A DNA stretch of 64,000 bases. Source: a virus. Taxonomy: Duplodnaviria > Heunggongvirae > Uroviricota > Caudoviricetes. This document shows, one piece after another, positions 9,840 through 31,560 of the stretch. Under the pieces are notes generated by a model that saw nothing but the letters and a program-made list of their open reading frames with translations, made no database searches and was not told the origin of the DNA. The stretch lies in IMG/VR virus record IMGVR_UViG_3300031555_003801, positions 1-64,000 of that record; one strand, 5' to 3'. Position 1 is the first letter of the stretch. Each line of letters begins with the position of its first letter. Made by a program: the position numbers and the translations under genes.

Positions 9840-9846
9840 GAAAATA

Positions 9847-9923: not shown

Positions 9924-9932
9924 ATATTAATA

Positions 9933-10813: not shown

Positions 10814-10866
10814 GGCATCAAGAGATAAACCTTCACGTGGTGATGCTGATTTCGACAGATTATCTC
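10812..10866 (+). repeat. Copy 2 of the ~55-nt structured element (immediately 3' of the tmRNA)
   Basis: catcaagagataaaccttcacgtggtgatGctgatttcgacagattatctcaaaaa. One substitution relative to copy 1. Confidence 0.5.
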
Positions 10867-11052: not shown

Positions 11053-11061
11053 AGTATTAAA

Positions 11062-11151
11062 GCTCCGTAGTCTAATGGTAAAACGCCGGACTCTAAATCC
11101 GTTATACTCTCTGAAAGGGTAATCTGGGTTCGAATCCCAGCGGGGCCGCCA
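11062..11151 (+). tRNA. Amber suppressor tRNA (anticodon CTA, reads UAG), class II with long variable arm
   Basis: Anticodon arm (c)cgga-ctCTAaa-tccg(t) with U33 and A37. Variable stem tactct/agggta. T arm ctggg-ttcgaat-cccag. Acceptor agctccg/cggggcc (1 A-C at 1-72) + g + CCA. The D arm is irregular. Confidence 0.6.
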
Positions 11152-11264: not shown

Positions 11265-12230
11265 ATGGAATTAATTGACTTTACGAAAGCAATAAATAAT
11301 GCTTAGTTATTTAAACCTACTGGTAACAATAAAAAAAAATTAAAAATTATTTATAATAATGAAGAATATATAATAAAAACTTCAAAATATACAATTGAAC
11401 AAGATAAAGAAAATAAATATAAAATGATTGAATTGTATAATACAATATCGGAATATTTAGGTTGTAAAATTTATGATAGTTTAAATATACCTGCACAAAA
11501 AACTTTATTAGGATATTATTAGTATAAAAATAAAAAACAAATGATAATTGCTTGTAAAAATTTTAATATTGATGATAGTTTTCTTCCTTTTGGTATATTC
11601 TTTAATAAAGAACGACAACAAGATAATAATAAATTGCAATCTTTAGAAATAAAAAATATTATAAAAAAAATTGAAGAACAAAATATTTATGATTCTCAAA
11701 AAATAAAAAAACGTTTTTGGGATATGTTTATTATTGATGCTTTTATTGATAATCCCGATAGAACTTCTGGAAACTGGGGTTTTATAAAAGATAAAAAAAC
11801 AAATACAATCATAAATTTTTGTCCAATTTTTGATTGTGAATAGAACATATTTTTAGAAATACTATTAAAAAATAAAAAACAATTATTAAATAATTAGAAT
11901 AAAATAAATTTTTTAGCTATATCGCCTTTTAAAAAATCTTATTTAATTTATGATAATAAAGTTATAAATTATTTTAATTTTATTTCCTCTTTAGAAAATG
12001 AAGATTGTAATGAAGCTTTAAAAAGAATTGTTCCTAAAATTGATATGGAAAAAATTATTTAGATTATAAATGATCTTCCACTTGAAGAATTCCAAAAAAA
12101 TAATTTAATAATAGTATTAAAAAAAAGAAAAGAATTATTATTAGATTTTCCTTTATTTCTCTTACAAAATATAGATAAAAGAGAAAAATACGAAAAAAAA
12201 ATAGAAAGGATAATATATGATAAATTATAA
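11265..12230 (+). CDS. HipA-like paralog with 5 in-frame TAG codons
   Basis: MELIDFTKAINNA*... FIIDAFIDNPDRTSGNWG. Same frame as ORF-track fragment 11541..11843. Its C-terminal ~125 bp is a near-exact direct repeat of the 3' end of 8099..8947. Stop TAA at 12228-12230 overlaps the ycaO start. Confidence 0.5.
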
Positions 12231-14007
12231 AAATCATTATAAAGAACGAAAACCAGAGGAAACAATAAAAATTATAGAAAACTTTTTTTTAAATCTCAAT
12301 ATGAAAATTAAAAGAAATGAAGTTATGATTAGTGAAATAAATACTTATTCAATACAAATAATATTATTTGATAAAAATGATTTTTTAATTTTATACGCTA
12401 ATGGTAAAGGTGAAACAGAAGAATTTGCAATTGCCTCTGCTTATGGCGAATTATATGAACGTTTCTGTAATATGAGATTTATTATGAAAGATGGTATTGC
12501 TCAAAATTTATTTTTACAAAAAAGAAAACAAAAATATAATTATTATTATCATCCAGAAGAAAAAGAATTTTCTTTAATAGAATTAATTAATGCCGATCAA
12601 AATTTTCATAATTTTTTCTTAGGAGATTTTTCTGAAAAAGATTCTGATATTATTAATTTTTATAATACACTTTTTAATAATAAATTTATTGCTGCGCCTT
12701 ATCAAGATTTATTAGATTCAAATAAACAATATTTTTATAACCCATATTTAATGACAGTGTTAAGAGGATCTGGCGGAATGGCTGCTGGAAATACATTAGA
12801 AGAAGCTTTAAATCAAGGCATTTCAGAACTTTACGAACATTATATTACAGATAAATTTCGTTATTTAAAAAAAGATTTTGATTTTCATTTTATAGATATT
12901 TCAACTATTAAAAACCAAAAATTAAAAGAAAAGATAAAATTATTAACAGATAATGAAAACTATGAATATTATTTAATTGATTTTTCTTATAATTTTAATG
13001 TACCTGTTTTATTATCTATTTTAATTGATAAAACTTTACAAAGATTTTTTATTAATTTTGGTTCTTTTCCTATTTTTGATATTGCTTTAGAAAGAACATT
13101 AACAGAATTATATCAAGGAGTTGTTTCTTTTAAAGAAGAAGAACAATCAAATAATATTATTGTTCCTTATAAAAGTGGAGTAACTATTATAGAAGCTTTA
13201 GACGCTACAGCAAATGTCACTAATTCTCTTTGTTTAAATGAAAGTTTTTTATTAAGTGAAAAAAAATTTTATTCCCCTAATTCAAAAATATTTTTATTTA
13301 ATCAGGATAAAAATTATTCAAATGAAGATATATTAAATTATTATAAAAAATTATCTTCTTATTTAAATATTAATTTTTGTTATTTAGATGTATCTCAATC
13401 TTCTGAAATGCATGCTATACAAATTTATAGTATAAATTTACCTCATTTCTCGTTACCTTTGGAAGCAAAAAAAATGCTTTACAAAAAACAACAATTAAAT
13501 GTTTATAAATTATTATCATATTTTATTCAGTTAGAAAATAAATGGCTAAATAATCATATATGGGATAATTTATTATGGGAAAAAATAATAATTTTATATA
13601 ATCAATTTACTATTGAAGATATTTTATTGTTTAATATTAGTGCCTCTATATTTTGTTTTAATTTTAGTAAAACTAATAATCTTTTATCATTAATTGAACA
13701 ATTTATAAAAATGGATTCAAATATTTATATGATTGAAGAACAAATTATTGCTATGTCTAATAAATCAATTCTTTCAGAAGATATTAAAAAATTCTTAACT
13801 CAATATAGGTATATTGTTAATAATGATTATCTTCCAAGTGAAAAAACTAAAATATTAAAAACTTTAATACCAGAATTTTCACAAGATGAAACATTATTTA
13901 AAAATATTATTACTCCAGAATATTTCTTACAAGTAATAATGGAAAAATTATATGAATATTATCATAGTGAAAAATATTCTGATTATCTTGATGCTTTAGT
14001 TGGATAA
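12217..14007 (+). CDS. YcaO-domain protein
   Basis: ANGKGETEEFAIASAYGELYERF matches the YcaO ATP-binding/cyclodehydratase signature. 596 aa. No TAG codons. Confidence 0.7.
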   Translation: MINYKNHYKERKPEETIKIIENFFLNLNMKIKRNEVMISEINTYSIQIILFDKNDFLILYANGKGETEEFAIASAYGELYERFCNMRFIMKDGIAQNLFLQKRKQKYNYYYHPEEKEFSLIELINADQNFHNFFLGDFSEKDSDIINFYNTLFNNKFIAAPYQDLLDSNKQYFYNPYLMTVLRGSGGMAAGNTLEEALNQGISELYEHYITDKFRYLKKDFDFHFIDISTIKNQKLKEKIKLLTDNENYEYYLIDFSYNFNVPVLLSILIDKTLQRFFINFGSFPIFDIALERTLTELYQGVVSFKEEEQSNNIIVPYKSGVTIIEALDATANVTNSLCLNESFLLSEKKFYSPNSKIFLFNQDKNYSNEDILNYYKKLSSYLNINFCYLDVSQSSEMHAIQIYSINLPHFSLPLEAKKMLYKKQQLNVYKLLSYFIQLENKWLNNHIWDNLLWEKIIILYNQFTIEDILLFNISASIFCFNFSKTNNLLSLIEQFIKMDSNIYMIEEQIIAMSNKSILSEDIKKFLTQYRYIVNNDYLPSEKTKILKTLIPEFSQDETLFKNIITPEYFLQVIMEKLYEYYHSEKYSDYLDALVG

Positions 14008-14153: not shown

Positions 14154-15710
14154 ATGAATAAGTTTTTAAATGGATTAACTGATGCAACTAACTTCACTTA
14201 CACTGAAAATGGTGCTATTACCCATAAAACTACTAAGTCTGCTCTGTTAGATATGTTCGCACTTGGTGGAGCATATAGAACTAGAAGTGACGCAGAAGTA
14301 ATCACCTTATTTAAGAACGCATATGAGGAAAATCCTGTTTATGCGTTAAAGTGCCTGTTCTATCTGCGCGACGTGCGTGGCGGACAGGGTGAAAGAAGAT
14401 TTTTCAAAACTGCAATGAAGTGGTTTGCTAATGCTGATGTAGAAGCAGCAAGAAGAAATTTCAAGCATATTCCAGAGTTTGGTAGATGGGATGATTTATA
14501 TCTTTTCATTAATACGCCTCTTGAAAATGAAATGTTCCAGTTTATGAAGGAACAGTTAGCACTCGATATGCAGTGCAAAACACCTTCTCTGTTAGCAAAG
14601 TGGTTAAAGTCTGAAAATACATCTTCTATGGAATCCAGATATCTGGCTAAGAAGACTCGTCAGTATTTTGGCATGACCGCAAAGCAGTATAGAAAGACAT
14701 TATCTATCCTCCGTGAAAGAATTAATGTTCTTGAAAGATTAATGTCTGCAGGTAAGTGGGATGAAATCGAGTTCGATAAGATTCCTTCTAAGGCAGGTTT
14801 AATTTATAAGAATGCTTTTGCTAGACACGATATCGAAAGAATGAAGACTGAAAAGGCTGTAGTATCTTATGCGGATTTCGCTAAGGATGTAACTACAACT
14901 GTAAATGCTAAGGCATTATATCCATATGAAGTAGTAGCTAAGGCTATTGATTTAATGGGATATAATGGTGGTTGGTTCCGTAGCACTCATGATGTTCCAT
15001 TAGATAATACTGATAGACTTATGATTAATAAATATTGGAATAATCTCGCTGATTATATCCAGGGTGCTAATTTTAATGGAATTGCAGTGGTAGATACTTC
15101 TGGTTCTATGACTGGTTCTTTTGCTAGTGCACCAATTAATGTAGCTGTTTCTCTTGGCATGTATTGTGCTGAAAAAAATAATGGTCCATTCAAAGATCAC
15201 TTCATTACATTTGAATCTAATCCTCATTTAATTAAGGTTGAAGGCGTAGACTTTTGCGAAAAGGTTTATAATATTACTGGCGCAGACTGGGGTGGTTCTA
15301 CAAATATTGAAGCAGTGTTTGACTTATTATTAGATACTGCTATCAGAAATAATTGTTCTCAGGATGAAATTCCACAGAATGTAATTGTTATTTCTGATAT
15401 GGAGTTTAACTCTTGTGTAACTTTTAATAGCTTACTTGCAAGAAGATATTATAATGAACCTATGTTTAATACTGAAACTTTATTCGAAACCATGGAACGC
15501 AAATGGAATAGAGCAGGATATCAGATGCCTGCAATTACATTCTGGAATGTTCAGGCAAGACAGAATAATATTCCAATGAAGACTGAAGGTAGAGTAAATT
15601 ATGTATCTGGTATGTCTCCAGTAATCTATGAACAGGTTATGAAAGGTTTAAGTGCTTACGATCTGATGATGGATAAGTTAGATAATGAAAGATATAGCGT
15701 AATTTGCTAA
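14154..15710 (+). CDS. vWA (MIDAS) domain protein with large N-terminal helical domain (Ro60/TROVE-like architecture possible)
   Basis: MIDAS motif VVDTSGSMTG. 518 aa. Clearly higher GC and different codon usage than flanking phage genes. Confidence 0.55.
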   Translation: MNKFLNGLTDATNFTYTENGAITHKTTKSALLDMFALGGAYRTRSDAEVITLFKNAYEENPVYALKCLFYLRDVRGGQGERRFFKTAMKWFANADVEAARRNFKHIPEFGRWDDLYLFINTPLENEMFQFMKEQLALDMQCKTPSLLAKWLKSENTSSMESRYLAKKTRQYFGMTAKQYRKTLSILRERINVLERLMSAGKWDEIEFDKIPSKAGLIYKNAFARHDIERMKTEKAVVSYADFAKDVTTTVNAKALYPYEVVAKAIDLMGYNGGWFRSTHDVPLDNTDRLMINKYWNNLADYIQGANFNGIAVVDTSGSMTGSFASAPINVAVSLGMYCAEKNNGPFKDHFITFESNPHLIKVEGVDFCEKVYNITGADWGGSTNIEAVFDLLLDTAIRNNCSQDEIPQNVIVISDMEFNSCVTFNSLLARRYYNEPMFNTETLFETMERKWNRAGYQMPAITFWNVQARQNNIPMKTEGRVNYVSGMSPVIYEQVMKGLSAYDLMMDKLDNERYSVIC

Positions 15711-15723
15711 TTCAAAAAATAAA

Positions 15724-15756
15724 AGGCGGGGTAAAAATACTCCGCCTTTATTTTTT
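15724..15756 (+). terminator. Rho-independent terminator
   Basis: ggcggggtaaaaatactccgcc + ttta-ttttttt. Confidence 0.7.
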
Positions 15757-15947: not shown

Positions 15948-16751
15948 TTGTTTTATAAGAAAGGATTTTTAATGAAATATTTTATTGATTTTGAAGCCAA
16001 TAGTCCGACGAATGAAATCATTGAAATAGGTTGCGTTTCTGAAAAAAATGATTGTTTTAAAATGTATGTTAAACCAACTACACCTATTGACCCATTTATT
16101 ACGGGATTAACGCATATTACAAATAAAATGGTAGAAGATTCTCCTTTAATTGATGAAGCAATTATGATTTTTTATAATTGGCTTATCAATACGCAGGAAC
16201 ATTTTTCTTGGAAAGATACTACTTTTTATTGCTATGGAAATGCGGATCATTCATTTATTCAGGCTTCAGCACAAACTTGCGAAACAACTGATTCTTATAT
16301 GATTCTTGCGGCTATGGCTATGTCTTTGAAAGATTTTACCAAGAAAGTAAATCATTTCTTTAAAGATAGTATTTCTTTAATCCAGGCATTAAATTATTTT
16401 AAAACCTCGGAAACAGCTTGGGAGCAGTGTCATGATGCTCTTGAGGATGCGCTAGCTTTAAAAGAATTATATAAAGTTTTACCAAAAAAATATTCATTAC
16501 CTTGTTCTCCATTTGTTATTAAAACAGAAATGGGTGTTAGAAGAAATAAAAAAGGTTATGGATATACTGATTATATTAGTTTAACAGAAGCTACTGAATG
16601 TGTTGTAAAAGAAATATTAACAACATCACCAAATTCTAATGTTAAATCTGAAAATATTAGAAAAAGAATTATTCATGCTATTAATAAGAAAAGTTCTTAT
16701 ATGGGATATAAATGGAAATATGTAAAGATTGAGAAAGGGGATGAAGAATAA
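15948..16751 (+). CDS. DEDDh-family 3'-5' exonuclease (DnaQ/RNase T-like)
   Basis: Exo I motif FIDFEANSP..EIIEIG. Exo III motif HDALEDALAL. The true start is probably the internal Met at MKYFIDFE. Confidence 0.65.
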   Translation: MFYKKGFLMKYFIDFEANSPTNEIIEIGCVSEKNDCFKMYVKPTTPIDPFITGLTHITNKMVEDSPLIDEAIMIFYNWLINTQEHFSWKDTTFYCYGNADHSFIQASAQTCETTDSYMILAAMAMSLKDFTKKVNHFFKDSISLIQALNYFKTSETAWEQCHDALEDALALKELYKVLPKKYSLPCSPFVIKTEMGVRRNKKGYGYTDYISLTEATECVVKEILTTSPNSNVKSENIRKRIIHAINKKSSYMGYKWKYVKIEKGDEE

Positions 16752-18169
16752 TGTATTAGGCATATGTAACTAAATTAAAAAATGTGCGGCCGCACCCTAA
16801 TGCTGATAGAATGCTTTTAGCAGACTGTTTCGGCAATACTGTTTGTGTAGGCCTTGACGCGCAAGAGGAAGATGTAATTCTCTATTTTCCAACAGATGGA
16901 CAATTATCTAAAGAATATGCGGAAATCAATAATCTTATAAGAATCAAGAATGAAGATGGAACATATTCCGGTGGATATTTAGACCCAGATAAAAGAAACA
17001 TCAAAGCAATTAAATTAAGAGGTGAAAAATCTGATGGTTTAGTAATGCCACTAGAATCCCTTTCTTCTTTTGGAGATATTTCTACTTTAAATATTGGAAA
17101 TACAATTAATGTCTTTAATGGACATGAAATTTGTAAAAAGTATATTCCAAGAGAAAATCCAATGAAGGTGCGCGCTGGCGGTAATAAGACCCGCAAGACC
17201 AAGCGCCTAATTGCTCCTTTATTCAAAGAACATGCTGATACTGAACAATTAGCATATAATCTTGATGCTTTCAAAGCGGGAGATGAAATTGAAATCACAT
17301 TAAAGATGCATGGAACTTCTCAAAGAACTGCTTACTTACCAAAATTAATTGGTTATAAAAGATCTATTTTAGATAGACTCTTAAAGAGAGAAGGAACTCC
17401 AATCTATGATTGGGGCTATGTGTCTGGAACTCGTAGAACTGTTGTAGATGATTTTGAAAATAGAACAACTTCTTTCTATGGTAGTGATGCATTTAGAGAA
17501 CCGCATGCAAAAATGTTTGAAGGAAAGCTTTATAAGGGTGAAACTGTTTATTATGAAGTTGTTGGTTTTACCGATAATGGAACTCCTATTATGGGTTCTT
17601 GTGATAATAGAAAAACTCAAGATAAAGAGTTTATTAAGAAATATGGTGAAGTGACTACTTTCTCTTATGGTTGTGACTGTGCGGAACAAGCATGGAGAGA
17701 AAATAGAGGACAAGATCCAGACAAACCTCAGTCTGACATTTATGTATATCGAATGACAATGACTAATGAAGATGGTTATGTAATGGAATTAACTCCTGAT
17801 TATATGAGATATAGATGCGAGCAGATGGGTGTAAAGACAGTGCCTGTTATGTGGAAAGGATACATTCCTTATACAGTAGATGACATTGATTCTACTATTC
17901 CTGGTCACAGAATTATACTTAGAGAAGGGGAAAATGCTGGAGACTGGGTTAAGAGTGTAGCAGAACAGTATTACGATGGACCTGACCCAATTGGTAGAAC
18001 CCATGTGCGGGAAGGTGTAGTTGTAAGAATTATAAATAGACCAAAATTTGCAGCATATAAGCATAAAAACTTTAGCTTCAAAGTTCTCGAAGGAATTGTC
18101 AAAGCGGATGCATTAATGCCAGATATGGAAGAAGCACAGGAGACTATTGATGAAAGTTCAGAGATTTGA
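16751..18169 (+). CDS. ATP-dependent RNA ligase (Rnl2/Rnl5-like, nucleotidyltransferase motif I KMHGTS) with N-terminal OB-like domain; codon 3 is TAG
   Basis: ATG TAT TAG at 16751-16759 joins onto ORF-track frame 16784..18169. LKMHGTSQR resembles the KxHG(T/S)N motif I of the Rnl2 family. GC-richer than the surroundings. Confidence 0.55.
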
Positions 18170-20577: not shown

Positions 20578-20610
20578 TGGGAGAGTTTAATTACTCTCCC
20601 TATTTTTTTT
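20578..20610 (+). terminator. Rho-independent terminator
   Basis: gggagagtttaattactctccc + tattttttttt. Confidence 0.7.
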
Positions 20611-20989: not shown

Positions 20990-22177
20990 ATGTCAAATTG
21001 TAATGAAAATAATTGTTCTTCTTTAAAAGAATTAATTACAAATTATAAATATAATAATTTATTACCAATTCATGGGATTTTATCTGTTACAAATAGATGT
21101 AATTTAAATTGTTCTTATTGTTTTCATAAACAAAATGAAATAGATATAAATTTTTATACTGCGGATATGGCTATAAAATATATTATTTCAAATGCGACTA
21201 TTCAAAAAGTAAAACCTAATATTAGCTTTTTTGGAGGAGAACCTTTATTATTATTTGATGAAATAATAAAACCATTAATTAATAAATATAAAGATTCTAT
21301 AAATTGGACTATTACAACAAATGGAACTTTATTAACAGAAAATATTATAGATTTTTTTACTGATAATAATGTTTCTATTTTATTATCTATGGATGGATGT
21401 AAAAAAGTTCAAGACAATCAAAGGCCTATGAAAAATGGAGAAAGTTGTTTTGATAAATTAAAAAATATCATTCCATATTTATTATTAAAGCAACCTAATA
21501 CTATTTTTAGGTCAACAATCTCAAGATATTCTTTAGATTTTTTAGAAGAAAATATTAATACGGCTAAAAATTTTGGTTTTAAATATATTACATTAGTGCC
21601 TAATTTATTTGAAGAATGGCAACCAGAAGATTTTTATAAGTGGGAACAATTTATAGATAATGAATCTATTAAAATTATGCAAAAAATTTCTTGGGAAGAA
21701 CCTTTTGATTACATATTAACAAATTTAAAAGATGGTATTCAAGGAATTTATAAATCTAATCAAAATAATTATTTAAAAAATCCTATTGATGCTTGTGGAA
21801 TGGGCTTTAAAGGTATTGGAATTTCTCCAAATGGAAAATTACATCCTTGTCAAGAAGAAAACGGTGTAGATGATATAAATATTATAGGTGATATTTATTA
21901 CGGAATTGATAAAAAATTACATGAACAATACTGTAAAGATATTTATAATAAATGGTTAGAATATATAGAAAAAATAGATAATATAATAGGAAGTTCTAAT
22001 TTTAAATTATTTTATGGAAATCATGTTTGTAATACAAGATTAAAAGATGGATTTGCTTTTAATAATACACAAACATATTATTTAAGAGCTTTACATAGAG
22101 CTTGTTCAAGATTATATTATAATTTTAATTTATCTTTAAATCCAAGAGCACAATATTTTTTAGGAGAAATTGAATGA
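20990..22177 (+). CDS. Radical SAM enzyme with C-terminal SPASM/twitch-like Cys cluster
   Basis: CNLNCSYC (CX3CX2C) near the N-terminus. C-terminal CGMGF...HPCQEENG cysteines. Confidence 0.8.
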   Translation: MSNCNENNCSSLKELITNYKYNNLLPIHGILSVTNRCNLNCSYCFHKQNEIDINFYTADMAIKYIISNATIQKVKPNISFFGGEPLLLFDEIIKPLINKYKDSINWTITTNGTLLTENIIDFFTDNNVSILLSMDGCKKVQDNQRPMKNGESCFDKLKNIIPYLLLKQPNTIFRSTISRYSLDFLEENINTAKNFGFKYITLVPNLFEEWQPEDFYKWEQFIDNESIKIMQKISWEEPFDYILTNLKDGIQGIYKSNQNNYLKNPIDACGMGFKGIGISPNGKLHPCQEENGVDDINIIGDIYYGIDKKLHEQYCKDIYNKWLEYIEKIDNIIGSSNFKLFYGNHVCNTRLKDGFAFNNTQTYYLRALHRACSRLYYNFNLSLNPRAQYFLGEIE

Positions 22178-23373
22178 TTACTTTAAACTTACATATAAAT
22201 TATAATTGTCCTTTATCTTGCCGATATTGTTGTCAAAGAAATGATATAGCTTTATTAGATTCTGAATTTACTGCTCAAGAAATGATTGATGTAGTACAAA
22301 ATTTTATGGATTCTAAAAATGTTGATAAATGTAAAATAAATATATCTGGAGGAGAACCTCTTTTAAAATATAAAGATATTCAACAATTAATGAAACATTT
22401 TCCAAATAATACTTATGAAATTTCTACTTCTGGATATTTATTAACTGCTGAAAAAGCTAAATTCTTTTCTTATTATGGAGTTAGTTATATTTTATCTGTT
22501 GATGGGGGAGAAAAAGTAACTAATTATTTAAGACCTCTAGCAAATGGAGAACAAGGATATTTTCAAAAATTAAAAGAAAATATACCACATATTTTATATT
22601 ATGCTCCAAGAACAAGAGCAAAATTAATTGTTCCTAAAAATTTAATTTCAGAAATTTTTAACACTTATTTAGAATTAGAAAGACTTGGTTTTCAAGAAAT
22701 TTTTATAACACCTAATGTATATGAAAATGAGGTTGATACACATCATCCAGAATTAGAGACAGGTCATTGGGAAGAAGAAGATTGGAATAAATTTAGAACT
22801 GAAATTTTTAAAATTATGAAAGAAATAGAATTAGGTATTTCTTTAAATCGAAAAAGATGTTTAATTACTAATATTATTACTATTTTAGTAAAAATGTTAA
22901 TTCCAGAAGAAGGAAAATTTAATAGTGCTAAATTAATTTGTGAAGTATTAGATTTTAAAGGCGGAACAAGTCCTGCTGGTGGGCAAGTTCCTATTTTAAA
23001 TACAGATATTTCTTTATGTATGAGAAATATAAATGAAGAAATTGATACTCAAGAAAAACTGTTAAATAAAATAAAACAAGATTATTTAGCTCTTAATGGC
23101 GTTTGCGAGCTAGATGAAAAATGTCCATATCAATCTACTTGTATGTATAGTGTTTGTTTATCTGAAAATTTAAAAAGTAAACATAAAAATATTTTTACTC
23201 CAACATTATTTCAGTGTAATACTCAAAAGATTTATCATGATGCAGCAATGTTATTTTTAAATCTTTTAAATGATAAAAATAATGAAGTTATAAAATATTA
23301 TTGGAATGAAATTTATTATAGAAAAGAGGTGTCTATGAATAATGCCTTATTATCCAGCTGGAACGGTGAATGA
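22174..23373 (+). CDS. Second radical SAM/SPASM-like enzyme
   Basis: CPLSCRYC (CX3CX2C). C-terminal CELDEKCPYQSTCMYSVC Cys cluster. Overlaps the upstream gene by 4 nt. Confidence 0.75.
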   Translation: MITLNLHINYNCPLSCRYCCQRNDIALLDSEFTAQEMIDVVQNFMDSKNVDKCKINISGGEPLLKYKDIQQLMKHFPNNTYEISTSGYLLTAEKAKFFSYYGVSYILSVDGGEKVTNYLRPLANGEQGYFQKLKENIPHILYYAPRTRAKLIVPKNLISEIFNTYLELERLGFQEIFITPNVYENEVDTHHPELETGHWEEEDWNKFRTEIFKIMKEIELGISLNRKRCLITNIITILVKMLIPEEGKFNSAKLICEVLDFKGGTSPAGGQVPILNTDISLCMRNINEEIDTQEKLLNKIKQDYLALNGVCELDEKCPYQSTCMYSVCLSENLKSKHKNIFTPTLFQCNTQKIYHDAAMLFLNLLNDKNNEVIKYYWNEIYYRKEVSMNNALLSSWNGE

Positions 23374-24028
23374 AGTTTGTGAAGCTTGTTATGCTTCTGA
23401 AAGTTCTTGCAAACCAGATTTTGGAAGTTCAACTGAATCCACCTACTGTGGAAATTGTAATGTTCAATGTAATACATCTCAAAGTTTTTGTTCTATTGGA
23501 ATTCAAAATATTTCTTCTCATGGAAATGTAGGTTCTTTTAGTGGCTTTGGTGCAACCAGTGATAATTTAATTTTTGAAAAATGGACAGCAAGTAAATGGA
23601 ATGAATTACAACAATTATATGAAATTGCTAATGGTTTAGGAATTAAACAAAATCAAGGAGCAAGTTTTTCATTTACAAGAGCCGCGGCAGATCCTTGTAA
23701 TAATACACATCCTGCGAATTCTTTAATTACTGCTGAAAAATATAATGAATTTTCTACTGCTGCAGAAAAATTTGGTTCTTATATTCCAACTGTTACTGGA
23801 GGACCTAGTGGTACAGTTATAACTGCTGGGCATTCTACAAATTTAGAAAATGGTTTTTCTAATGCTAAATTTAATACTTCTGTATGTGATATATGTAACG
23901 CAGGAACTGAACATAACTGTGGTTATAATTGTAGCTGTAATTATAATTGTGGTTATAACTGTAATTATAATTGCTGTAATCATAATTGTAATAAAAATGA
24001 AACAAGTGATGCTGGCGGTGCTAAATAA
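23342..24028 (+). CDS. Cysteine-rich protein with C-terminal tandem NCGYN/NCxYN repeats; candidate substrate of the adjacent rSAM enzymes
   Basis: N-terminal CEACYASESSCK...CGNCNVQCNTSQSFC. C-terminal NCGYNCSCNYNCGYNCNYNCCNHNCNKN, encoded by a ~15-bp tandem DNA repeat at 23917-23995. Overlaps the rSAM stop. A terminator follows at 24038. Confidence 0.55.
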   Translation: MPYYPAGTVNEVCEACYASESSCKPDFGSSTESTYCGNCNVQCNTSQSFCSIGIQNISSHGNVGSFSGFGATSDNLIFEKWTASKWNELQQLYEIANGLGIKQNQGASFSFTRAAADPCNNTHPANSLITAEKYNEFSTAAEKFGSYIPTVTGGPSGTVITAGHSTNLENGFSNAKFNTSVCDICNAGTEHNCGYNCSCNYNCGYNCNYNCCNHNCNKNETSDAGGAK

Positions 24029-24037
24029 AAATATTAA

Positions 24038-24070
24038 AGGTGAGATAAAAAATCTCACCTTTATTTTTTT
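24038..24070 (+). terminator. Rho-independent terminator
   Basis: aggtgagataaaaaatctcacct + ttatttttttt. Confidence 0.75.
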
Positions 24071-24130
24071 TAAAAAATATGTTATAATATATTATAATAA
24101 AAATTAAGAAATAAATAAGGAGTTGATACT

Positions 24131-24850
24131 ATGGCTACTTACATTTGCAGTGATTTACATGGCAATTATAATGTATGGTATGAAATCAAAAAATTCTTAA
24201 AAAAAGATGATAAATTAATTTGCCTTGGTGATGTAATTGATAGAGGTTCCGCAGGATATTCCATTTTAGTAGAAATGCTTGGAGATTCAAGAGTAGAATT
24301 ATTTATGGGTAATCATGAAGATATGATGATTCGTAGTTGTGATTTACATCTTAAAGGTGCTAATACAAATACTTCTTCCACTATGGCAAATTGGATTTAT
24401 GGCAATGGTGGAAATTGTACTTTTGAAGATTGGTGTCTCGATCCTGGTCGTATGGAAATATTAGAACAAATGCGCAATCTACCTTTAAAAAGATTACATA
24501 TTAATGAAAAAGGTTTAAAAATTATTTTATGTCATGCAGGTTGTTGTTCAGAAGATTTTTATAATGATAATATTGAAGATTTTGATTTGTTATGGGATCG
24601 AAATCATTTTCATTTTCCTTGGCCAAAAGATGAAGAATTTGAAGACTGGATGGTAGTTCATGGACATACTCCAATAGCAAAGATGATGAATTGGCCAGAT
24701 TATGTGCCGACCAAAGCTCTATGGTATGAAGGTGGGCATAAAATTGATATTGATTGTTTAACAGCATTTACCAATTTTACTATTCTTCTTAATATTGATA
24801 CTTTTGAAGAACATATTATTGGAGAACCTATTGAGGAGGTGCTTTGGTAA
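24131..24850 (+). CDS. Calcineurin-like metallophosphoesterase / Ser-Thr protein phosphatase (lambda PPase/ApaH-like)
   Basis: Motifs CSDLHGN, GDVIDRG, GNHE. Confidence 0.75.
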   Translation: MATYICSDLHGNYNVWYEIKKFLKKDDKLICLGDVIDRGSAGYSILVEMLGDSRVELFMGNHEDMMIRSCDLHLKGANTNTSSTMANWIYGNGGNCTFEDWCLDPGRMEILEQMRNLPLKRLHINEKGLKIILCHAGCCSEDFYNDNIEDFDLLWDRNHFHFPWPKDEEFEDWMVVHGHTPIAKMMNWPDYVPTKALWYEGGHKIDIDCLTAFTNFTILLNIDTFEEHIIGEPIEEVLW

Positions 24851-25140
24851 TGGCTGCTTATGAAATTCATGATTTTTATTGTATTAAATGCGGAAATAAA
24901 TCAATTCCATTATCTCGTAAAAGTGGGCATCAGCATGCAAGAGGTCATAGAAAGAAATTATATTGTCCGCATTGTAAATTAACTATTAACCATGTAGAAG
25001 TAAGGAATTATGATGAAAAAGAAGAATTTTTGGAAAAATTTAAAAATGGTGAATTCATTGCCGAAGTCGAAGAAAGCATTGAGAATTGTGAGAATTCATC
25101 CATGCGGGTATTGTTCGAATCCATATCTAGCAAGAGATAA
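24844..25140 (+). CDS. Hypothetical zinc-ribbon protein
   Basis: CIKCGN...CPHCK. Confidence 0.35.
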   Translation: MVMAAYEIHDFYCIKCGNKSIPLSRKSGHQHARGHRKKLYCPHCKLTINHVEVRNYDEKEEFLEKFKNGEFIAEVEESIENCENSSMRVLFESISSKR

Positions 25141-25164
25141 TTTTGCGAGTCAAAAATATGATGT

Positions 25165-25674
25165 TTGGTTTTGTCCAAAATGCGGAACGGGATGGGTGAT
25201 ATAATGGCAACAAGTTTAATTATGATGGTTGGCGCGCCTGGAAGTGGTAAAACTACTTGGATTAAAAATGCTAAAGAATTTAATTTAGAAGGAAATCATA
25301 TTTCTCGAGATGTAATTAGATTTTCTTTAGTAAAAGAAGACGAAGAATATTTTAGTCGAGAAAATGAAGTATTTGATAAATTTATTGAAGAAATTCAAAA
25401 GTCTATTGATGCGGGACAGCGCACTTATGTAGATGCTACTAATCTCAATGAAAGATCAAGAAATAAAGTTCTTGATAGATTAAATCTTGAAAATGTAGAT
25501 TTATATGCTTTAGTTTTTAATATTCCTCTTGAAGAATGTTTGCGACGCAATGCTCTGCGGACCGGACGTGAAGTAGTGCCAGAAAGCGCTCTGACGCGCA
25601 TGCATAAATCTATGACAAATCCGCGAGGAGACCAGAAATATAAATATAAGGAGGTATATGTAATTTATGCCTAA
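25165..25674 (+). CDS. Polynucleotide 5'-kinase (T4 Pnk kinase-domain-like P-loop kinase)
   Basis: MMVGAPGSGKTTW (Walker A), ISRDVIR, DATNLNERSR, FNIPLEECLRRNALR, all similar to the T4 Pnk kinase domain. The start is probably the ATG at 25204. Confidence 0.65.
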   Translation: MVLSKMRNGMGDIMATSLIMMVGAPGSGKTTWIKNAKEFNLEGNHISRDVIRFSLVKEDEEYFSRENEVFDKFIEEIQKSIDAGQRTYVDATNLNERSRNKVLDRLNLENVDLYALVFNIPLEECLRRNALRTGREVVPESALTRMHKSMTNPRGDQKYKYKEVYVIYA

Positions 25675-25909
25675 ATATTGCAAATATTGCGGAAAAGAAT
25701 TAGAGTTAGATTTTAATTTTGATCTTGGTTTTTCTTCTCCTAATAATACTTCCTATAAAGAATGTAATTGTGAAACTAAACAAAAAATTAAAAAATTAAA
25801 AGAAAAAATTCATGAACTTGAAATAAAAAAGAAAGCTTTGCATGAAGAACAATATCATTTAAAATGCGATTTAAATGATTTAGAATATAATGCTACAAAA
25901 TATATTTAA
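25667..25909 (+). CDS. Hypothetical protein (Cys pair + coiled coil)
   Basis: ORF track only. Confidence 0.3.
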   Translation: MPKYCKYCGKELELDFNFDLGFSSPNNTSYKECNCETKQKIKKLKEKIHELEIKKKALHEEQYHLKCDLNDLEYNATKYI

Positions 25910-25912
25910 GGA

Positions 25913-26536
25913 GTGATACTAATGGGGAAAATTTTCCTTACTAGTGACTGTCATTTCAACCATGTTAATATTATTAAATATGAGTCTGAAACACGCGGCA
26001 TGTTTGCTAGTCCCGCAGAAATGAATGAAAAAATTATTGAAAATTGGAATAGTGTAGTTAGTCCAGAAGACACAGTATATGTTTTAGGGGATTTATGTAT
26101 GGGAAAGCTAGATGATATTCCCTTAATTATTGAAAGACTAAATGGCACTATTGTTCTCGTTCGCGGTAACCACGATACAGAGAACAGATTACGTCTTTAT
26201 CGTTCTCTTGGAATTGAAGTAAAAGATATTGCTTACCTTGAATATAAAGGCAGATTTTTTGTAATGTGTCATTTCCCTATGACTAATCCAGAATTTATTA
26301 AATTAGTTACAAAAGATAATAGTGAAGTAGTTATGCTTTATGGACATATTCACTCTAATGCGCCAAAGGGTTATGTAGATGGAACTTATCATGTAGGTAT
26401 GGATACAAATGATTTAACCCCAATTTCAATTCATCAAATTTGGAAAGAATGTTGGCCAGAAAATATGAATGAACAAAATAAAGCATATAAAGCAAAGTAT
26501 GAATGTGGAGGTTGTCCAGAAGAAGATAATTGTTAG
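25913..26536 (+). CDS. Metallophosphoesterase (calcineurin-like; candidate 2',3'-cyclic phosphodiesterase/3'-phosphatase partner of the kinase)
   Basis: TSDCHFNH, GDLCMG, GNHD, GHIH motifs. Confidence 0.7.
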   Translation: MILMGKIFLTSDCHFNHVNIIKYESETRGMFASPAEMNEKIIENWNSVVSPEDTVYVLGDLCMGKLDDIPLIIERLNGTIVLVRGNHDTENRLRLYRSLGIEVKDIAYLEYKGRFFVMCHFPMTNPEFIKLVTKDNSEVVMLYGHIHSNAPKGYVDGTYHVGMDTNDLTPISIHQIWKECWPENMNEQNKAYKAKYECGGCPEEDNC

Positions 26537-26602
26537 TTCTTTTTTGATAAAGAACATTGTGGAGTTTTTAATTAAAATTTAATATATAAAAGGAGTTTTT
26601 TA

Positions 26603-27994
26603 ATGGAAAAAATTATTGGTATTCTTGCGGCCGGCGTTCCGGTATTAGCAGTTATCGTCCTCGTAGCTCTTGTAGTAGTCTTTGGTTATGTAAAGGCACC
26701 GCCTGATGTTGCCTACATTATTTCCGGAGTAAGAAAAAATCAACGAATCCTCGTTGGTAAGGCTGGCATTAAGATTCCATTCTTTGAAAGACTTGATAAG
26801 TTAGCTCTTGGCGCAATTCAGATTGATGTAAAGACTGGTTCTTCTGTTCCAACAGCAGAATATATCAATGTTAGAATTGACTCTACTGTATCTGTAAGAG
26901 TAAGCCAGGATCCAGCGCTGATGAAGATTGCAGCTCAGAACTTCTTGAATGTGCCACGTGAAGAAATTGCGCGTAAGGTAAATGATTTACTGGAAGGTAA
27001 TATCCGTGAAATCGCAGGTTCTATGAAGCTTACTGAAATGGTTAGCGATAGAAAGAAATTTAGCGAACAGGTTCAGGAAAATGCTGTTCCAGACTTACAG
27101 AGATTTGGTCTTGAATTAGTTTCTTTCAATGTTCAGAACTTCGTCGATGACAATGATGTGATTACTAACTTAGGTATTGACAATGTAGAACAGATTAGAA
27201 AGGCAGCTATGATTGCTAAGTCTAATGCACAGAGAGAAGTTGCTATCGCAGAAGCAGAAAATGCTAAGCAGGCAAATGATGCTAAGGTTAAGGCAGCCGA
27301 AGAAATTGCTGTAAGAAATAATGACCTGGCTATTAAGAAAGCTCAGCTTCAGAAGATTTCTGATACTGAACAGGCTCAGGCAGATGCAGCAGCTGGTATC
27401 GAAGCAGAAAATCAGCGTAAAGTAATGGAAGTTGCGGCAGCAAATGCTAACATTGCTAAGGCTGAAAGAGAAACTGAATTAAAGAGACAGCAGATTGAAT
27501 TAAAAGAAAGAGAACTGGATGCTCTGGTTCGTAAGCAGGCAGATGCTGAAAAGTATGCCGCTGAAAAGAAAGCAGAAGCAGAATTAATTACTCGTCAGAA
27601 GAAAGCAGAAGCTGAACGCTATGAAAAGGAACAGGAAGCAGAAGCTATGAAGGCTCAGGCTGATGCAGCTAAATATGCGGCAATGGCTGAAGCAGAAGGT
27701 ATTGCGGCCAAAGGTCGTGCGGAAGCAGAAGCTATTGAAAAGAAGGCAGAAGCTCAGAAGTTAATGGGTGAAGCATCTGTAGTAGATATGATTCTTCAGA
27801 CATTACCAGAAATGACTGCCGCAGCTGCTGCTCCACTTGCCAATGTAGATACTATGAACCTCTATGGTGAAGGTAATGGAGGTAAAGTTGTTGGCGATGT
27901 AATGAAGATTACTAATCAGGTAATGGAAGGTCTCGCTGCTAATGGTATCAATGTAATTGATATTATTAATAAAGCAATGGAACGCAATAGATAA
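26603..27994 (+). CDS. Flotillin/SPFH (band 7) family protein
   Basis: N-terminal TM segment, SPFH domain, long Ala/Glu/Lys-rich coiled coil (KAEAE repeats). GC-richer than the backbone. Confidence 0.8.
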   Translation: MEKIIGILAAGVPVLAVIVLVALVVVFGYVKAPPDVAYIISGVRKNQRILVGKAGIKIPFFERLDKLALGAIQIDVKTGSSVPTAEYINVRIDSTVSVRVSQDPALMKIAAQNFLNVPREEIARKVNDLLEGNIREIAGSMKLTEMVSDRKKFSEQVQENAVPDLQRFGLELVSFNVQNFVDDNDVITNLGIDNVEQIRKAAMIAKSNAQREVAIAEAENAKQANDAKVKAAEEIAVRNNDLAIKKAQLQKISDTEQAQADAAAGIEAENQRKVMEVAAANANIAKAERETELKRQQIELKERELDALVRKQADAEKYAAEKKAEAELITRQKKAEAERYEKEQEAEAMKAQADAAKYAAMAEAEGIAAKGRAEAEAIEKKAEAQKLMGEASVVDMILQTLPEMTAAAAAPLANVDTMNLYGEGNGGKVVGDVMKITNQVMEGLAANGINVIDIINKAMERNR

Positions 27995-28011
27995 TTAAAT
28001 CCTTTTGGACA

Positions 28012-28040
28012 AAACCGAGATATTATTATCTCGGTTTTTT
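28012..28040 (+). terminator. Rho-independent terminator
   Basis: aaaccgagata-ttatt-atctcggttt + tttt. Confidence 0.7.
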
Positions 28041-29648: not shown

Positions 29649-29767
29649 TTTCCCTGAACGGTCGAAGTTTGGACCAAAAATCGCATAGCAAATTTTTTCC
29701 ATAAAAACCTCCATATTTGTTTTTATATATTTTTTATGATATAATAAAAATAAAAAAGGAGTTTCCA

Positions 29768-30220
29768 ATGAAGAGAGAGCCTGAATTTATTTGGAATGAA
29801 CAAGCAGGTATTGCTACTTGCGTAATTGAAGACGCAAAGGGAAGAAATCATGTAGGTGTTGCTGCTTGTCATCCAAAAGACAGAGATATGATGACAGATA
29901 AAGTTGGTTGCGAAATTGCGCTCAGACGTGCGGAAATTGAAGCTCTTCGCTCATATATTAGAGATGAATTAAAACCAGGTCTTGACGCTTTAAATCAGCT
30001 TTATTTTTCTATTAAACATAGTAAGAAGTTTAGTCCTAAAGGATATGAGACTATTATGTTATATAGACAAATTAGACAAAAAGAAGAAGATATTGCTCTT
30101 GTAAAAAGTATTATTAGAGAAAGAAAATCTGATTTAAAAGCTTATATTGATGCAAAAGAACATTTTTATCAGATTACTCGCAAGGGTAGAGAACTTGCAG
30201 CTGAGGGCAATAATATTTAA
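29768..30220 (+). CDS. Hypothetical protein
   Basis: Start chosen at ATG 29768, which has RBS AAAGGAG and an upstream -10 TGATATAAT. The ORF-track start at 29717 would include the promoter. Confidence 0.4.
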   Translation: MKREPEFIWNEQAGIATCVIEDAKGRNHVGVAACHPKDRDMMTDKVGCEIALRRAEIEALRSYIRDELKPGLDALNQLYFSIKHSKKFSPKGYETIMLYRQIRQKEEDIALVKSIIRERKSDLKAYIDAKEHFYQITRKGRELAAEGNNI

Positions 30221-30300: not shown

Positions 30301-31560
30301 ATGAAGATATACAAATTTTATGATACTTGCAGTCTATTAATCAAGGCAGATGCTTTATTTAAAGATGAACAAGATACCATAGTTATTTCTTCAATAAGCT
30401 TAGAAGAGTTAGAAAACATTAAAACCTCTGGCTCTAAGGATGAAGATACTAAGATGCGTGCTAGACATTTATTGCGCGTTCTTGATGAAAATCCTGACAA
30501 GTATGAAATTTGGATCTTTAAAGAACCAATGTTGAAGCCTATTGAGGAAAAGGGTTTTAGCATCTCAAATGATATGAGAATCCTTGCTAGCGCAATTGAT
30601 TATGATAATACTTGCCATCCAGATGAAACAGTATTTATAACCAATGATTTATTATTAAAACATATTGCTAATTTATTTTTTGGTGAAGATTCTGTTGGTA
30701 GTATAGAAGAAAATATTGATGATGGATATACTGGCTTCAAGGAAGTATATTTATCTAATGAAGAAATGGCCTAGTTTTATTAGAATATAAACTAGAATAT
30801 TTTTAATTTGCATATAAATTAGTATTTATTTATTTATAATCAATAGAAATAGCATGTAGATACTGTCTGCTGGGATGGTGAAACACATCGTAGTGTAATA
30901 TATCATTCATTTAAATCTGAATGGTTTGGTGAAGTCAAACCATATAAACATGATATTTATCAAGTCATTTTGGCAGATAGTTTATGTAATAATCAAATAA
31001 CCATGGTAAAGGGGCCTGCGGGCACAGGTAAAACATTCCTTTCTCTTGGTTATTTAATGCATTTATTAGAAAAAGGTAAAATTGATAAGATTATTGTTTT
31101 TTGTAATACCGTAGCTACCAAAAATTCTGCTAAGCTGGGGTATTATCCAGGAACTAGAAATGAAAAGCTTCTGGATTCACAAATTGGTAATCTACTAATT
31201 AGTAAGTTAGGAGACAGATATGCGGTTGAAGATTTAATTGAAACCGGAAAATTAGTTTTATTACCTTTATCTGATATTAGAGGCTATGATACTTCTGGAA
31301 TGAATGCAGGTATTTATATCTCAGAAGCGCAAAATATGGATATTTCATTAATGAAATTAACATTACAGAGAATCGGAGAAGATAGTGTTTGTATCATTGA
31401 TGGTGATTGTAAAACTTAGGTAGATGATATGAGTTTTGCGGGTCGCAATAATGGTATGCGTAGAGTTTCAAAAGTATTTAGAGGACAAGATGTGTATGGA
31501 GAAGTTGAACTTCAAATTATACATCGTTCAAAAATAGCACAAATTGCGGAGCAGTTATAA
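30301..31560 (+). CDS. PhoH-like protein (N-terminal PIN domain + PhoH P-loop ATPase) read through 8 in-frame TAG codons, 7 of them clustered in the interdomain linker
   Basis: PIN-like FYDTCSLL, SLEEL, ITNDLLL. ATPase motifs GPAGTGKT and IIDGDCKT*VDD...GEVELQIIHRSKIAQIAEQL. ORF-track pieces 30301..30774 and 30970..31419 are in the same frame and are joined by TAG-containing sequence. Confidence 0.65.

Follow-up and report, generated by a model that had tools for sequence, protein, structure and literature searches.

The operon and its gene products

The window analysed here, i.e. the whole stretch of 64,000 nucleotides at positions 1 to 64,000 of the IMG/VR virus record IMGVR_UViG_3300031555_003801 (Caudoviricetes), had a low GC content (~30%), was coding on one strand and formed part of a large phage. 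Six genes on the + strand (24131-27994) encoded two metallophosphoesterases (MPE1 and MPE2), a Zn-ribbon protein, a standalone Pnk/Pnkp-type kinase, a small open reading frame (ORF) and a flotillin-like protein. They were regarded as one operon because of the terminators that bound them, the overlaps between genes (MPE1 stop and Zn-ribbon start as TAATG; kinase and 80-amino-acid (aa) ORF by 8 nt) and the AGGAG-type ribosome-binding site (RBS) before each gene. Terminator and promoter scans were judged against shuffled sequence; the region held 12 terminator-like sites against 4.7 expected by shuffling, while the promoter-like matches (73, with 75.7 in shuffles) were not enriched. The features of the operon and of the ligase unit upstream are listed in Table 1.

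Table 1. Features of the operon and of the ligase unit in the window
Feature	Position	Strand	Remarks
Intrinsic terminator	24035..24063	+	12-bp stem + T run; closes upstream radical-SAM/Cys-rich unit; operon 5' boundary
Promoter-like site TTTAAA-18-TATAAT	24069..24098	+	followed by RBS AAGGAG and MPE1 ATG; weak, position-only support
MPE1, 239 aa	24131..24850	+	lambda-phosphatase-clade binuclear metallophosphoesterase
Zn-ribbon protein, 96 aa	24850..25140	+	CxxC...CxxC, basic loop, two C-terminal helices
Standalone Pnk/Pnkp-type kinase, 156 aa	25204..25674	+	without phosphatase domain
80-aa ORF	25667..25909	+	CxxC...CxC and coiled coil
MPE2, 217 aa	25922..26575	+	YfcE/aq_1665-type metallophosphoesterase; TAG 26534-26536 = Gln
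SPFH/Band-7 flotillin-like protein, 463 aa	26603..27994	+	N-terminal membrane helix; last gene of operon
Intrinsic terminator	28011..28038	+	operon 3' boundary
DUF2828/DUF7788 protein	14154..15710	+	PHROG 850 'RNA-binding protein', 3.9e-132
Terminators bounding ligase unit	15722-15749 and 20579-20600		separate transcription unit
DEDD (RNase T/DnaQ-like) 3'-5' exonuclease	15948..16751	+	first gene of ligase unit; stop overlaps ligase start
ATP-dependent RNA ligase, 472 aa	16751..18169	+	Rnl5-type N-domain; in-frame TAG (Gln) 16757-16759

A first-pass annotation made from the letters of the window had described a set of end-healing enzymes in this + strand region, and domain searches in Pfam recovered all three of them as Metallophos, AAA_33 and Metallophos_2. 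Its statement that two metallophosphoesterases flank the kinase held in that both are present, but the Zn-ribbon gene and the 80-aa ORF intervene. The second phosphoesterase had been ended at 26536; with Gln encoded by the TAG at 26534-26536, MPE2 runs past this position to 26575. That annotation mentioned neither the Zn-ribbon partner nor the flotillin gene nor the recoding of TAG. Ratios of nonsynonymous to synonymous substitution rates (dN/dS) of 0.23 for MPE1, 0.19 for the kinase, 0.11 for MPE2 and 0.085 for the flotillin-like protein showed purifying selection.

The kinase carried the motifs GAPGSGKTTW and DATNLNERSR and matched AAA_33 in Pfam (1e-20) and PHROG 505 'polynucleotide kinase' (1.7e-24). 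A single-sequence search gave the kinase domain of the bacterial Pnkp of C. thermocellum (CthPnkp; 4gp7, 1e-13) as the best solved relative, followed by PSTK and T4 Pnk (1ly1/1ltq, 3.6e-8), while the family profile gave strong E-values in the PDB only for T4 Pnk (4.5e-18), PSTK, CthPnkp and Pnkp1. The best NCBIfam model was TIGR04075, bacterial Pnkp (positions 8-155, 1.6e-17; 63 bits against a cut-off of 750). No HAD (DxDxT) phosphatase domain was found in Pfam, NCBIfam or PHROGs, all 156 aa being kinase domain, in agreement with the first-pass description of a T4-Pnk-like P-loop kinase lacking that domain. More than 200 homologues were all standalone and ~155 aa long, and because of this length and the RBS-like GGGTGAT upstream the start was most likely ATG 25204, which corrects the earlier placement of the gene at 25165..25674.

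The P-loop of the kinase (G10-x4-G15-K16-T17) was present, and in the 4gp7 alignment the residues matching CthPnkp Asp38, Arg41, Asp78 and Arg116/120/123 were all conserved; these we take to be D36 (the general base), R39, D77 and R115/R119/R122, respectively. Most catalytic residues were invariant in a 27-sequence alignment, with K16, D36, R39 and R119/R122 invariant or nearly so. A dNMP or adenylate kinase, which the first-pass annotation had named as the competing identity, was rejected: no nucleoside monophosphate (NMP) kinase appeared among the PDB profile matches, an archaeal CMP-kinase reached only 1.5e-3 against 1.6e-17 for Pnkp, and a separate guanylate-kinase-like gene is present. 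The homology supports placing the protein in the polynucleotide/RNA-end kinase clade and not among the NMP kinases. Since the window encodes a NAD-dependent DNA ligase and the guanylate-kinase-like protein, both separate from the operon, other genes serve for DNA sealing and NMP phosphorylation.

MPE1 matched Metallophos in Pfam (7e-15) and PHROG 246 'NinI-like Ser/Thr phosphatase' (1e-29). Against lambda phosphatase (1g5b) it gave 7.6e-8 as a single sequence and 6.5e-21 as a family profile, which bore out its earlier description as PP-lambda-like; further profile matches were ApaH (~1e-7), PP1 (~1e-6) and the CthPnkp phosphatase domain (4j6o, 4.2e-6). Its motifs were D8-x-H10, G33-D34-x-x-D37-R38-G (GDVIDRG), G60-N61-H62-E63, H135 and H177-G-H179. 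The metal/phosphate ligands D8, H10, D34, R38, N61, H62, H135 and H177/H179 were invariant in 27 sequences and are the equivalents of Pnkp Asp187, His189, Asp233, Arg237, Asn263, His264, His323 and His376 (list in PMC2190708). None of the best 120 homologues was fused to a kinase, all being standalone, as was H81. Two fused PHROG profiles, 246 and 8238, were each matched by both proteins, the kinase aligning to the N-terminal part and MPE1 to the C-terminal part.

MPE2 matched Metallophos_2 in Pfam (1.9e-8), PHROG 547 (7.5e-48) and aq_1665 (1xm7, 2.9e-11), with weak NCBIfam matches to YfcE (TIGR00040, 3.8e-5, below the cut-off) and PdeM (1.3e-3). Its motifs SDCHFNH, GDLCMG, GNHD, CHFP and GHIH were followed by a Cys-rich C-terminal tail, which past the TAG was conserved in the related contigs L014 and L016. 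The Arg at the GDxxDR position was absent from MPE2 (GDLCMG) and from 7 homologues, and the His of motif III (GNHD) was kept in MPE2 and all aligned homologues, with no Asn/Cys replacement.

According to Keppetipola & Shuman (PMC2190708), the Pnkp phosphatase belongs to the lambda-phosphatase family, and lambda phosphatase is itself able to hydrolyse 2',3'-cyclic nucleotides. Monoesterase activity depends on the Arg of GDxxDRG, which is missing in MJ0936, Mre11 and Rv0805 and has no exact counterpart in YfcE, while the His of GNH is a determinant of cyclic phosphodiesterase activity (PMC2190708). On the same reasoning MPE2 resembles the cyclic-nucleotide phosphodiesterase Rv0805 in its retained His. 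Because MPE2 lacks the Arg and keeps the His, it is a predicted diesterase-only enzyme and a candidate 2',3'-cyclic phosphodiesterase; MPE1, which has both residues, is a predicted 3'/2'-phosphomonoesterase that would possibly also be competent as a 2',3'-cyclic phosphodiesterase.

The AlphaFold2 (AF2) model of the Zn-ribbon protein (predicted local distance difference test score, pLDDT, 91.8) showed a four-Cys beta-ribbon followed by two helices, and the ribbon has the bL33 Zn-ribbon fold. The protein differs from bL33 in its extra two-helix tail, in the non-significant sequence match (E 0.06-0.6 for the profile against PDB bL33 sequences, and no match to Ribosomal_L33 of Pfam even at E <= 10) and in being encoded beside, or fused to, a kinase and not in a ribosomal context. 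The family comprised 283 representative clusters, nearly all standalone, of 55-150 aa. Protein P0400 (246 aa; contig L031 3-743, JGI 3300053673) was a seamless fusion of a Zn-ribbon and a Pnk-type kinase, 42% identical to each of the two window proteins (E 5e-23 and 1e-36, respectively). Because of this natural fusion, the Zn-ribbon protein is proposed as a subunit of the kinase that would bind RNA or target the enzyme to it. The gene downstream of P0400 was partial and not MPE2; by eye (CHPxDRD motif) it was like the window ORF at 29717-30220, and the contig was without MPE2 and Band-7 at that position.

In Listeria P100-like phages, a Zn-ribbon homologue was flanked on one side by the tRNA array and on the other by a cluster encoding a DUF2828 'RNA-binding protein', an HD phosphohydrolase, RtcB, NADAR and RNA ligase. 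The context of the gene in a Staphylococcus phage was uninformative. The ribosomal protein bL33 is reported to contact E-site tRNA and to be exchangeable on ribosomes (PMC6375957).

The 80-aa ORF was lineage-specific (43% identical in L014, absent from L016 and from more distant relatives) and is probably not core. The flotillin-like protein matched Band_7 in Pfam (1.3e-15) and FloT in NCBIfam (3.4e-65) and may be a scaffold for the enzyme set; Burroughs and Aravind reportedly included SPFH/Band-7 scaffolds in RNA repair syntax in 2016. A PADLOC search for defence-system components matched no protein of the module, save a generic DEDDh match of the exonuclease.

Ligase unit and genetic code of the phage

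The ligase unit opened with the DEDD exonuclease (RNase_T 1.7e-15 in Pfam; DEDDh 2.4e-16 in PADLOC), a gene that is translationally coupled to the ligase and in relatives lies before the ligase (L022), near the ligase (L020) or before MPE1 (L026). The first-pass start of the ligase, ATG 16751, holds only if the in-frame TAG, its third codon, is read through. The ligase carried motifs I (LKMHGTS), IV (EGVVVR) and V (YKHKN) and ended ~35 aa past motif V. Its N-terminal 185 residues matched the DRB0094/DraRnl model (TIGR02306 positions 12-177, 1.3e-13), at 50.5 bits against a cut-off of 151. Shorter ligases at the same place in sister phages matched NgrRnl over both domains (5cot, 1.2e-42) and are unambiguous Rnl5 enzymes, and hhalign aligned the long window ligase with their N-domain (95%, E 3.9e-8, 85 columns). 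A profile search with the window ligase did not find NgrRnl by sequence. Because its AF2 model was poor (pLDDT 50.6), the fold result was only suggestive: the top six Foldseek matches were all NgrRnl (E 1.7e-6 to 6.9e-5), with template-modelling scores of only 0.28-0.37.

The window ligase shares with the Rnl5 enzymes DraRnl and NgrRnl the signature N-domain, the nucleotidyltransferase (NTase) motifs and the absence of a C-terminal appendage; in contrast, it is ~130 aa longer, its motif I is KMHG (Rnl2-like) against KxDG, and it falls below the curated cut-off. By the criteria of Unciuleac & Shuman (PMC4408790) it would be classed as Rnl5-type, with an NTase domain that has diverged and carries insertions. 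Rnl5 seals nicked duplexes in which the strand bearing the 3'-OH is RNA, while Rnl1 and Rnl4 handle stem-loop breaks (PMC4408790); its physiological role has been called 'uncharted' (PMC5397189).

Two Rnl5 subtypes interchange at one genomic position while the healing genes stay. The short subtype (KxDG, ~385-420 aa) was found in L020 (6261-7457), L026 (4355-5623), L027 (6576-7733) and L033 (6092-7354), and the long subtype (KMHG, ~460-495 aa) in the window, L022 (709-2196) and L028 (7833-9209). The long form had at least 8,000 relatives, and the best 120 listed were 63-100% identical.

The DUF2828/DUF7788 protein encoded before the ligase unit may also belong to the RNA-repair neighbourhood. 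Its gene in L028 (509-3105) was split by a GIY-YIG homing endonuclease and lay near cREC, RlaP and the ligase, and its homologue in Listeria phage LP-083-2 adjoined the Zn-ribbon homologue, RtcB and an RNA ligase. A PDB sequence search gave no match that would make it a Ro60/TROVE relative. The protein was also encoded at L025 7578-9101.

The genetic code was examined through the in-frame TAG codons. Under the standard code MPE2 was truncated, the ligase was without a start and PIN-PhoH was in three pieces. The PIN and PhoH fragments at 30301-31560 became a single 419-aa protein via seven in-frame TAGs, with homologues of the same length. TAG faced Gln in relatives and vice versa (CKT-TAG-VDD against CKTQVDD; LTLQRIG against LTL-TAG-RIG); over seven protein families the residue opposite TAG was Gln in 40 cases and the next commonest residue in 16, and in well-conserved columns it was Gln in 4/4. 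TAG is a sense codon (Gln) in early and middle genes of the window phage. The nearest annotated relative of MPE2 was in the gut phage Phass-1, classified in the 'Caudoviricetes code 15 clade', and the window phage is a large gut phage using code 15, with TAG recoded. ORF calling under the standard code breaks up or shortens such genes, and code 15 is therefore needed to annotate such phages.

The tRNA array at 1.8-11.2 kb of the window contained 22 tRNA genes, along with a tmRNA and a tRNA whose anticodon is CTA. The tRNA(CTA) suppressor (11061-11151, +) was a type II tRNA of 91 nt, its variable arm being long; A1 and C72 were mismatched, position 73 was G, and its anticodon stem-loop was near-identical to that of the phage tRNA-Tyr(GTA) except for G34->C; these features are odd for a Gln-inserting suppressor, though the residues facing TAG were mainly Gln. 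A full-length ROOL RNA (5099-5707, +; Rfam RF03087, 337 bits, E 4.5e-77) abutted tRNA-Gly at 5707, and the tmRNA (10465-10814, +; Rfam 102.6 bits), at the end of the array, encoded the short tag peptide AKPYRLAA. The array also held a PD-(D/E)XK endonuclease (7088-7510, +; PDDEXK_5 9.6e-26) and, directly upstream of tRNA-Ile(TAT), a ThiF-family E1-like enzyme (8944-9675, +; 6.3e-29). The replication module of the window included a ClpP-like protease (38794-39417, +) and a gene with only the N-terminal domain of S-adenosylmethionine synthetase (49901-50692, +).

Between the ligase unit and the operon lay genes for two radical-SAM enzymes, side by side at 20990-22177 and 22174-23373 (+), and a Cys-rich ORF of 228 aa (23342-24028, +) with CxxC and NYNC-type repeats, and a YcaO protein was encoded at 12217-14007 (+). 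Together these genes (12217-14007, 20990-24028) look like a cassette for modification of ribosomally synthesised and post-translationally modified peptides (RiPP-like) set between the two units. The cassette was absent from the relatives examined.

Gene order in related phages

Homologues were placed by exact-protein look-up on metagenomic contigs of 120-260 kb, including contigs from human gut samples, and seven lineages were counted (the window group, L020, L022, L027, L028, L033 and L034). Across these lineages, the kinases were 41-88% identical to the window kinase. MPE2 followed the kinase directly in all seven, often with overlapping stop and start codons, while a Zn-ribbon gene directly before the kinase, MPE1 at a distance of <=3 kb and an Rnl5-type ligase <=8 kb upstream were each found in 6/7 lineages. 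The contiguous order in L033 was MPE1-Rnl5-DUF7695-Znf-kinase-MPE2, and that in L027 was Rnl5-Zn ribbon-Band-7-three small ORFs-MPE1-Znf-kinase-MPE2. The Band-7 gene adjoined MPE2 in the window group, L022, L028 and L034, and adjoined the ligase in L027. L028 additionally had cREC, RlaP and the DUF2828/DUF7788 protein, and Thg1 was nearby in L026; cREC and RlaP are families that Iyer et al. link to RNA ligases (PMC7824862). The healing genes of L022 were 36-52% identical to those of the window and its ligase 63%, so that the healing genes evolve faster.

The enzyme set is not a product of chance, given the E-values, the catalytic residues invariant in 27-sequence alignments, the dN/dS of 0.09-0.23 and a gene order conserved where the kinases are only 41-51% identical. 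By these comparisons, it is much more likely that the kinase, the Zn-ribbon protein, both MPEs and the ligase are functionally linked than that they meet by coincidence. At the DNA level, megablast of 12 kb found no similar GenBank phage. Scans of IMG/VR gave no kinase relatives and only distant MPE1 relatives, without a kinase alongside, and an exact-sequence look-up of the kinase returned no record.

Candidate pathway, alternatives and known systems

Heal-and-seal RNA repair by a split, Pnkp-like set of separate proteins with an Rnl5-type ligase was the best explanation for the locus, and we consider it fairly probable. A metal-independent host RNase, of a defence system or a toxin, would leave RNA with 2',3'-cyclic phosphate and 5'-OH ends. 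MPE2 and/or MPE1 would open the cyclic phosphate, MPE1 would strip the resulting 2'/3'-phosphate to give a 3'-OH, the kinase would transfer a phosphate from an NTP to the 5'-OH, and the Rnl5-type ligase would seal the 3'-OH/5'-PO4 break. The DEDD exonuclease would possibly trim ends, the bL33-like Zn-ribbon would attach to the RNA substrate (tRNA or rRNA/ribosome) and bring in or position the kinase, and the flotillin may scaffold the enzyme set. For this pathway, every activity, the way the MPEs divide the work, the pairing with the ligase in the window phage, the identity of the target RNA and a purpose in counter-defence are all inferred. The 22 tRNAs and the tmRNA represent a heavy genome investment in translation RNAs and were counted in favour of RNA repair.

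Bacterial Pnkp (C. thermocellum) shares with the window its kinase domain with all catalytic residues, a 3' end-healing enzyme that is likewise a binuclear MPE of the lambda-phosphatase clade with the same metal/phosphate ligands, and the same logic of 5'-kinase, 2',3'-cyclic phosphodiesterase/phosphatase and ATP-dependent ligase. In contrast, its kinase, phosphatase and ligase-like domains are fused (~850 aa), whereas those of the window are encoded by separate genes (239 aa for the phosphatase, 156 aa for the kinase and 472 aa for the ligase) and the gene order differs (phosphatase, Zn-ribbon, kinase, second phosphoesterase). The C-terminal ligase domain of bacterial Pnkp is of Rnl4 type and the window ligase of Rnl5 type, and the window adds the bL33-like Zn-ribbon, the second MPE and the flotillin. 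No Hen1/methyltransferase match was found among the window ORFs scanned, the window being part of the genome and TAG-split ORFs being able to escape such a scan. The first-pass view of kinase plus MPE as a bacterial Pnkp split into separate genes thus stood with regard to the kinase clade and to an MPE1 of the lambda-phosphatase clade with both residues, but MPE1 itself is nearer to lambda phosphatase.

T4 Pnkp with Rnl1, which acts against PrrC, is also a phage heal-and-seal strategy, and the window kinase is homologous to the T4 Pnk domain (profile 4.5e-18). However, T4 Pnkp has a HAD/DxDxT phosphatase fused to its kinase, while the window phosphatase is neither HAD nor fused, and T4 Rnl1 is tailored to anticodon stem-loops, while the window ligase is not Rnl1-like and has the N-domain of DraRnl/NgrRnl. 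The T4 Pnk/Rnl1 anticodon-loop paradigm invoked in the first-pass annotation is therefore an analogy and not a match, because the ligase is of the Rnl5 type that seals duplex nicks.

Several points weigh against RNA repair. The reading rests on sequence comparison for every family member. The co-localisation is in part general backbone synteny, since PIN-PhoH, RNase H and gyrase are kept too. Rnl5 ligases favour nicked duplexes over anticodon loops (PMC4408790). The link drawn earlier to an RNA ligase gains support from L033 and L027, where the ligase lies inside the same cluster, but in the window it stands ~6 kb upstream in a different transcription unit, with the radical-SAM/Cys-rich insertion between. 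MPE1 did not match TIGR04075, and its standing as a close orthologue of the Pnkp phosphatase was not supported, as it is nearer to lambda phosphatase, PrpA/PrpB and ApaH. MJ0936 and YfcE, which are relatives of MPE2, do not cleave cyclic nucleotides (PMC2190708). No significant Rfam match was found to a Y-RNA-like or tRNA-like cofactor near Band-7 or the operon.

Both phosphoesterases also occur apart from the kinase. Standalone lambda-like phosphatases were present in many phages without a kinase, and MPE2-type genes were present in ~1,480 GenBank phage records, mostly of genera without a match to the window kinase. Enterococcus phage 113 (L029, MZ147816; Herelleviridae) carried at 4777-10181 an HflC/SPFH-like gene, a 3'-5' exoribonuclease, two tandem MPE2 paralogues, a small ORF and a lambda-like phosphatase, with neither kinase nor ligase; because of this cluster, a kinase-independent role of the MPEs in protein dephosphorylation or degradation of nucleotide signals is possible. 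As an observation in its own right, the Herelleviridae cluster suggests an older SPFH-exonuclease-MPE module.

Such occurrences are part of the support for an alternative without a single pathway, which we consider unlikely. The genes would then be mere neighbours: MPE1 would be a protein phosphatase of NinI/PrpA type, acting on Ser/Thr/Tyr to reset host signalling or a kinase-based defence, MPE2 would degrade second messengers or other diesters, and only the kinase and the Zn-ribbon would act on RNA ends. MPE1 indeed has its best matches in lambda protein phosphatase and PrpA/PrpB, then ApaH; lambda phosphatase/NinI and PrpA/PrpB are its closest characterised relatives, with the same five motifs (DxH, GDxxDRG, GNHE, H, GH), and its best 120 homologues are the standalone proteins described above. 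Lambda-like and MPE2-like genes cluster without kinase or ligase in an Oscillospirales phage as well as in Herelleviridae, genes of the MPE2 family abound in phages that have no Pnk-like kinase, and calcineurin-like phosphodiesterases have been proposed as counter-signalling enzymes (Iyer et al., PMC7824862). Lambda phosphatase is regarded as a protein phosphatase with no link to a kinase or ligase, whereas MPE1 sits in a kinase operon. Against the alternative, MPE1 is translationally coupled to the Zn-ribbon gene and in L033 lies directly upstream of the RNA ligase. The kinase-MPE2 adjacency in 7/7 lineages and the fused kinase-lambda-like-phosphatase(-ligase) proteins of phages (PHROG 246, 8238) likewise argue for a joint pathway.

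A role of the enzymes in processing ends for DNA replication or repair appeared improbable. Their task would be to clean DNA ends bearing 3'-phosphate/5'-OH, or junctions of RNA and DNA, with Rnl5 joining RNA-OH to pDNA at nicks (RNA patches, primers). T4-type Pnk kinases act on DNA also, the operon is surrounded by genes for replication and nucleotide metabolism (RNase H, gyrase, RecJ, DnaB, Pol III alpha), and the weak PdeM match of MPE2 (1.3e-3) is to a ligase-associated DNA-damage endonuclease. Furthermore, Rnl5 nick sealing requires RNA in the 3'-OH strand only, and D. radiodurans without DraRnl becomes more sensitive to ionising radiation (PMC4408790, PMC5397189). The window, however, has its dedicated NAD-dependent DNA ligase, and the neighbourhoods of its relatives hold RlaP, cREC, Thg1, a tRNA_anti OB-fold protein and the DUF2828 'RNA-binding protein'. 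The fold of the kinase partner is otherwise seen in a ribosomal protein that contacts rRNA/tRNA, and the nearest relatives of the kinase are RNA repair or tRNA enzymes.

Maturation or modification of the phage's own RNAs, i.e. of the ends of the 22-tRNA/tmRNA/ROOL transcripts or by a PSTK/KTI12-like tRNA-directed reaction, was the least convincing and very doubtful: PSTK and KTI12 are among the closest relatives of the kinase, the phage has a very large tRNA array with tmRNA and ROOL RNA, the Listeria phage Zn-ribbon homologue lies at the end of a tRNA array and bL33 contacts E-site tRNA, as cited above, but the kinase (156 aa) is without the C-terminal tRNA-binding domain of PSTK, bacterial tRNA maturation (RNase P, RNase Z, exonucleases) needs no end-healing by kinase and phosphatase, and the combination of phosphoesterase and ligase fits repair better.

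Within heal-and-seal repair, a more specific arrangement is put forward only tentatively, and with more doubt than belief: the bL33-like Zn-ribbon would dock the 5'-kinase onto tRNA or the ribosome, the two MPEs would split between them the diesterase and monoesterase steps of the single active site of Pnkp, and Rnl5 would seal. The general scheme of kinase, phosphoesterase, ATP-grasp ligase and many tRNAs is already described by comparative genomics of jumbo-phage RNA repair syntax (Iyer et al. 2021, PMC7824862), which shares with the window the ATP-grasp RNA ligase, polynucleotide kinase, phosphoesterases and many phage tRNAs. That text names calcineurin-like phosphatases as an occasional alternative to HAD and ROT/TROVE-like RNA-binding proteins as accessory factors (PMC7824862), and in the portion available does not describe the clade of the window (~120-260 kb, code 15, gut) with a fixed Zn-ribbon-kinase-MPE2 core and two MPEs. 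New here are the recurrent bL33-like Zn-ribbon-kinase-MPE2 core (6-7/7 lineages), the division between two MPEs, for which individual residues allow predictions, and the repeated pairing with Rnl5 in abundant code-15 gut phages.

To our knowledge, phage RNA repair is known experimentally mainly from T4 (Pnkp/Rnl1 against PrrC), and for bacterial Pnkp/Hen1 and the Rnl5 ligases, whose structures and chemistry are solved, we know of no established biological targets. The clade is abundant in gut metagenomes, and its pathway is naturally dissected into one activity per small protein, so that the steps are separately testable. The predictions are that MPE2 is a diesterase only and MPE1 a monoesterase and diesterase (by the Arg/His rules of Keppetipola & Shuman), that the bL33-like Zn-ribbon is a kinase subunit, and that the Rnl5 ligase works with Pnkp-type healing enzymes. 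If the arrangement of docking Zn-ribbon, split MPEs and Rnl5 is true, it would provide the first physiological pathway for the widespread Rnl5 ligases, and the Zn-ribbon would represent a new class of subunit that directs polynucleotide kinases to their substrate.

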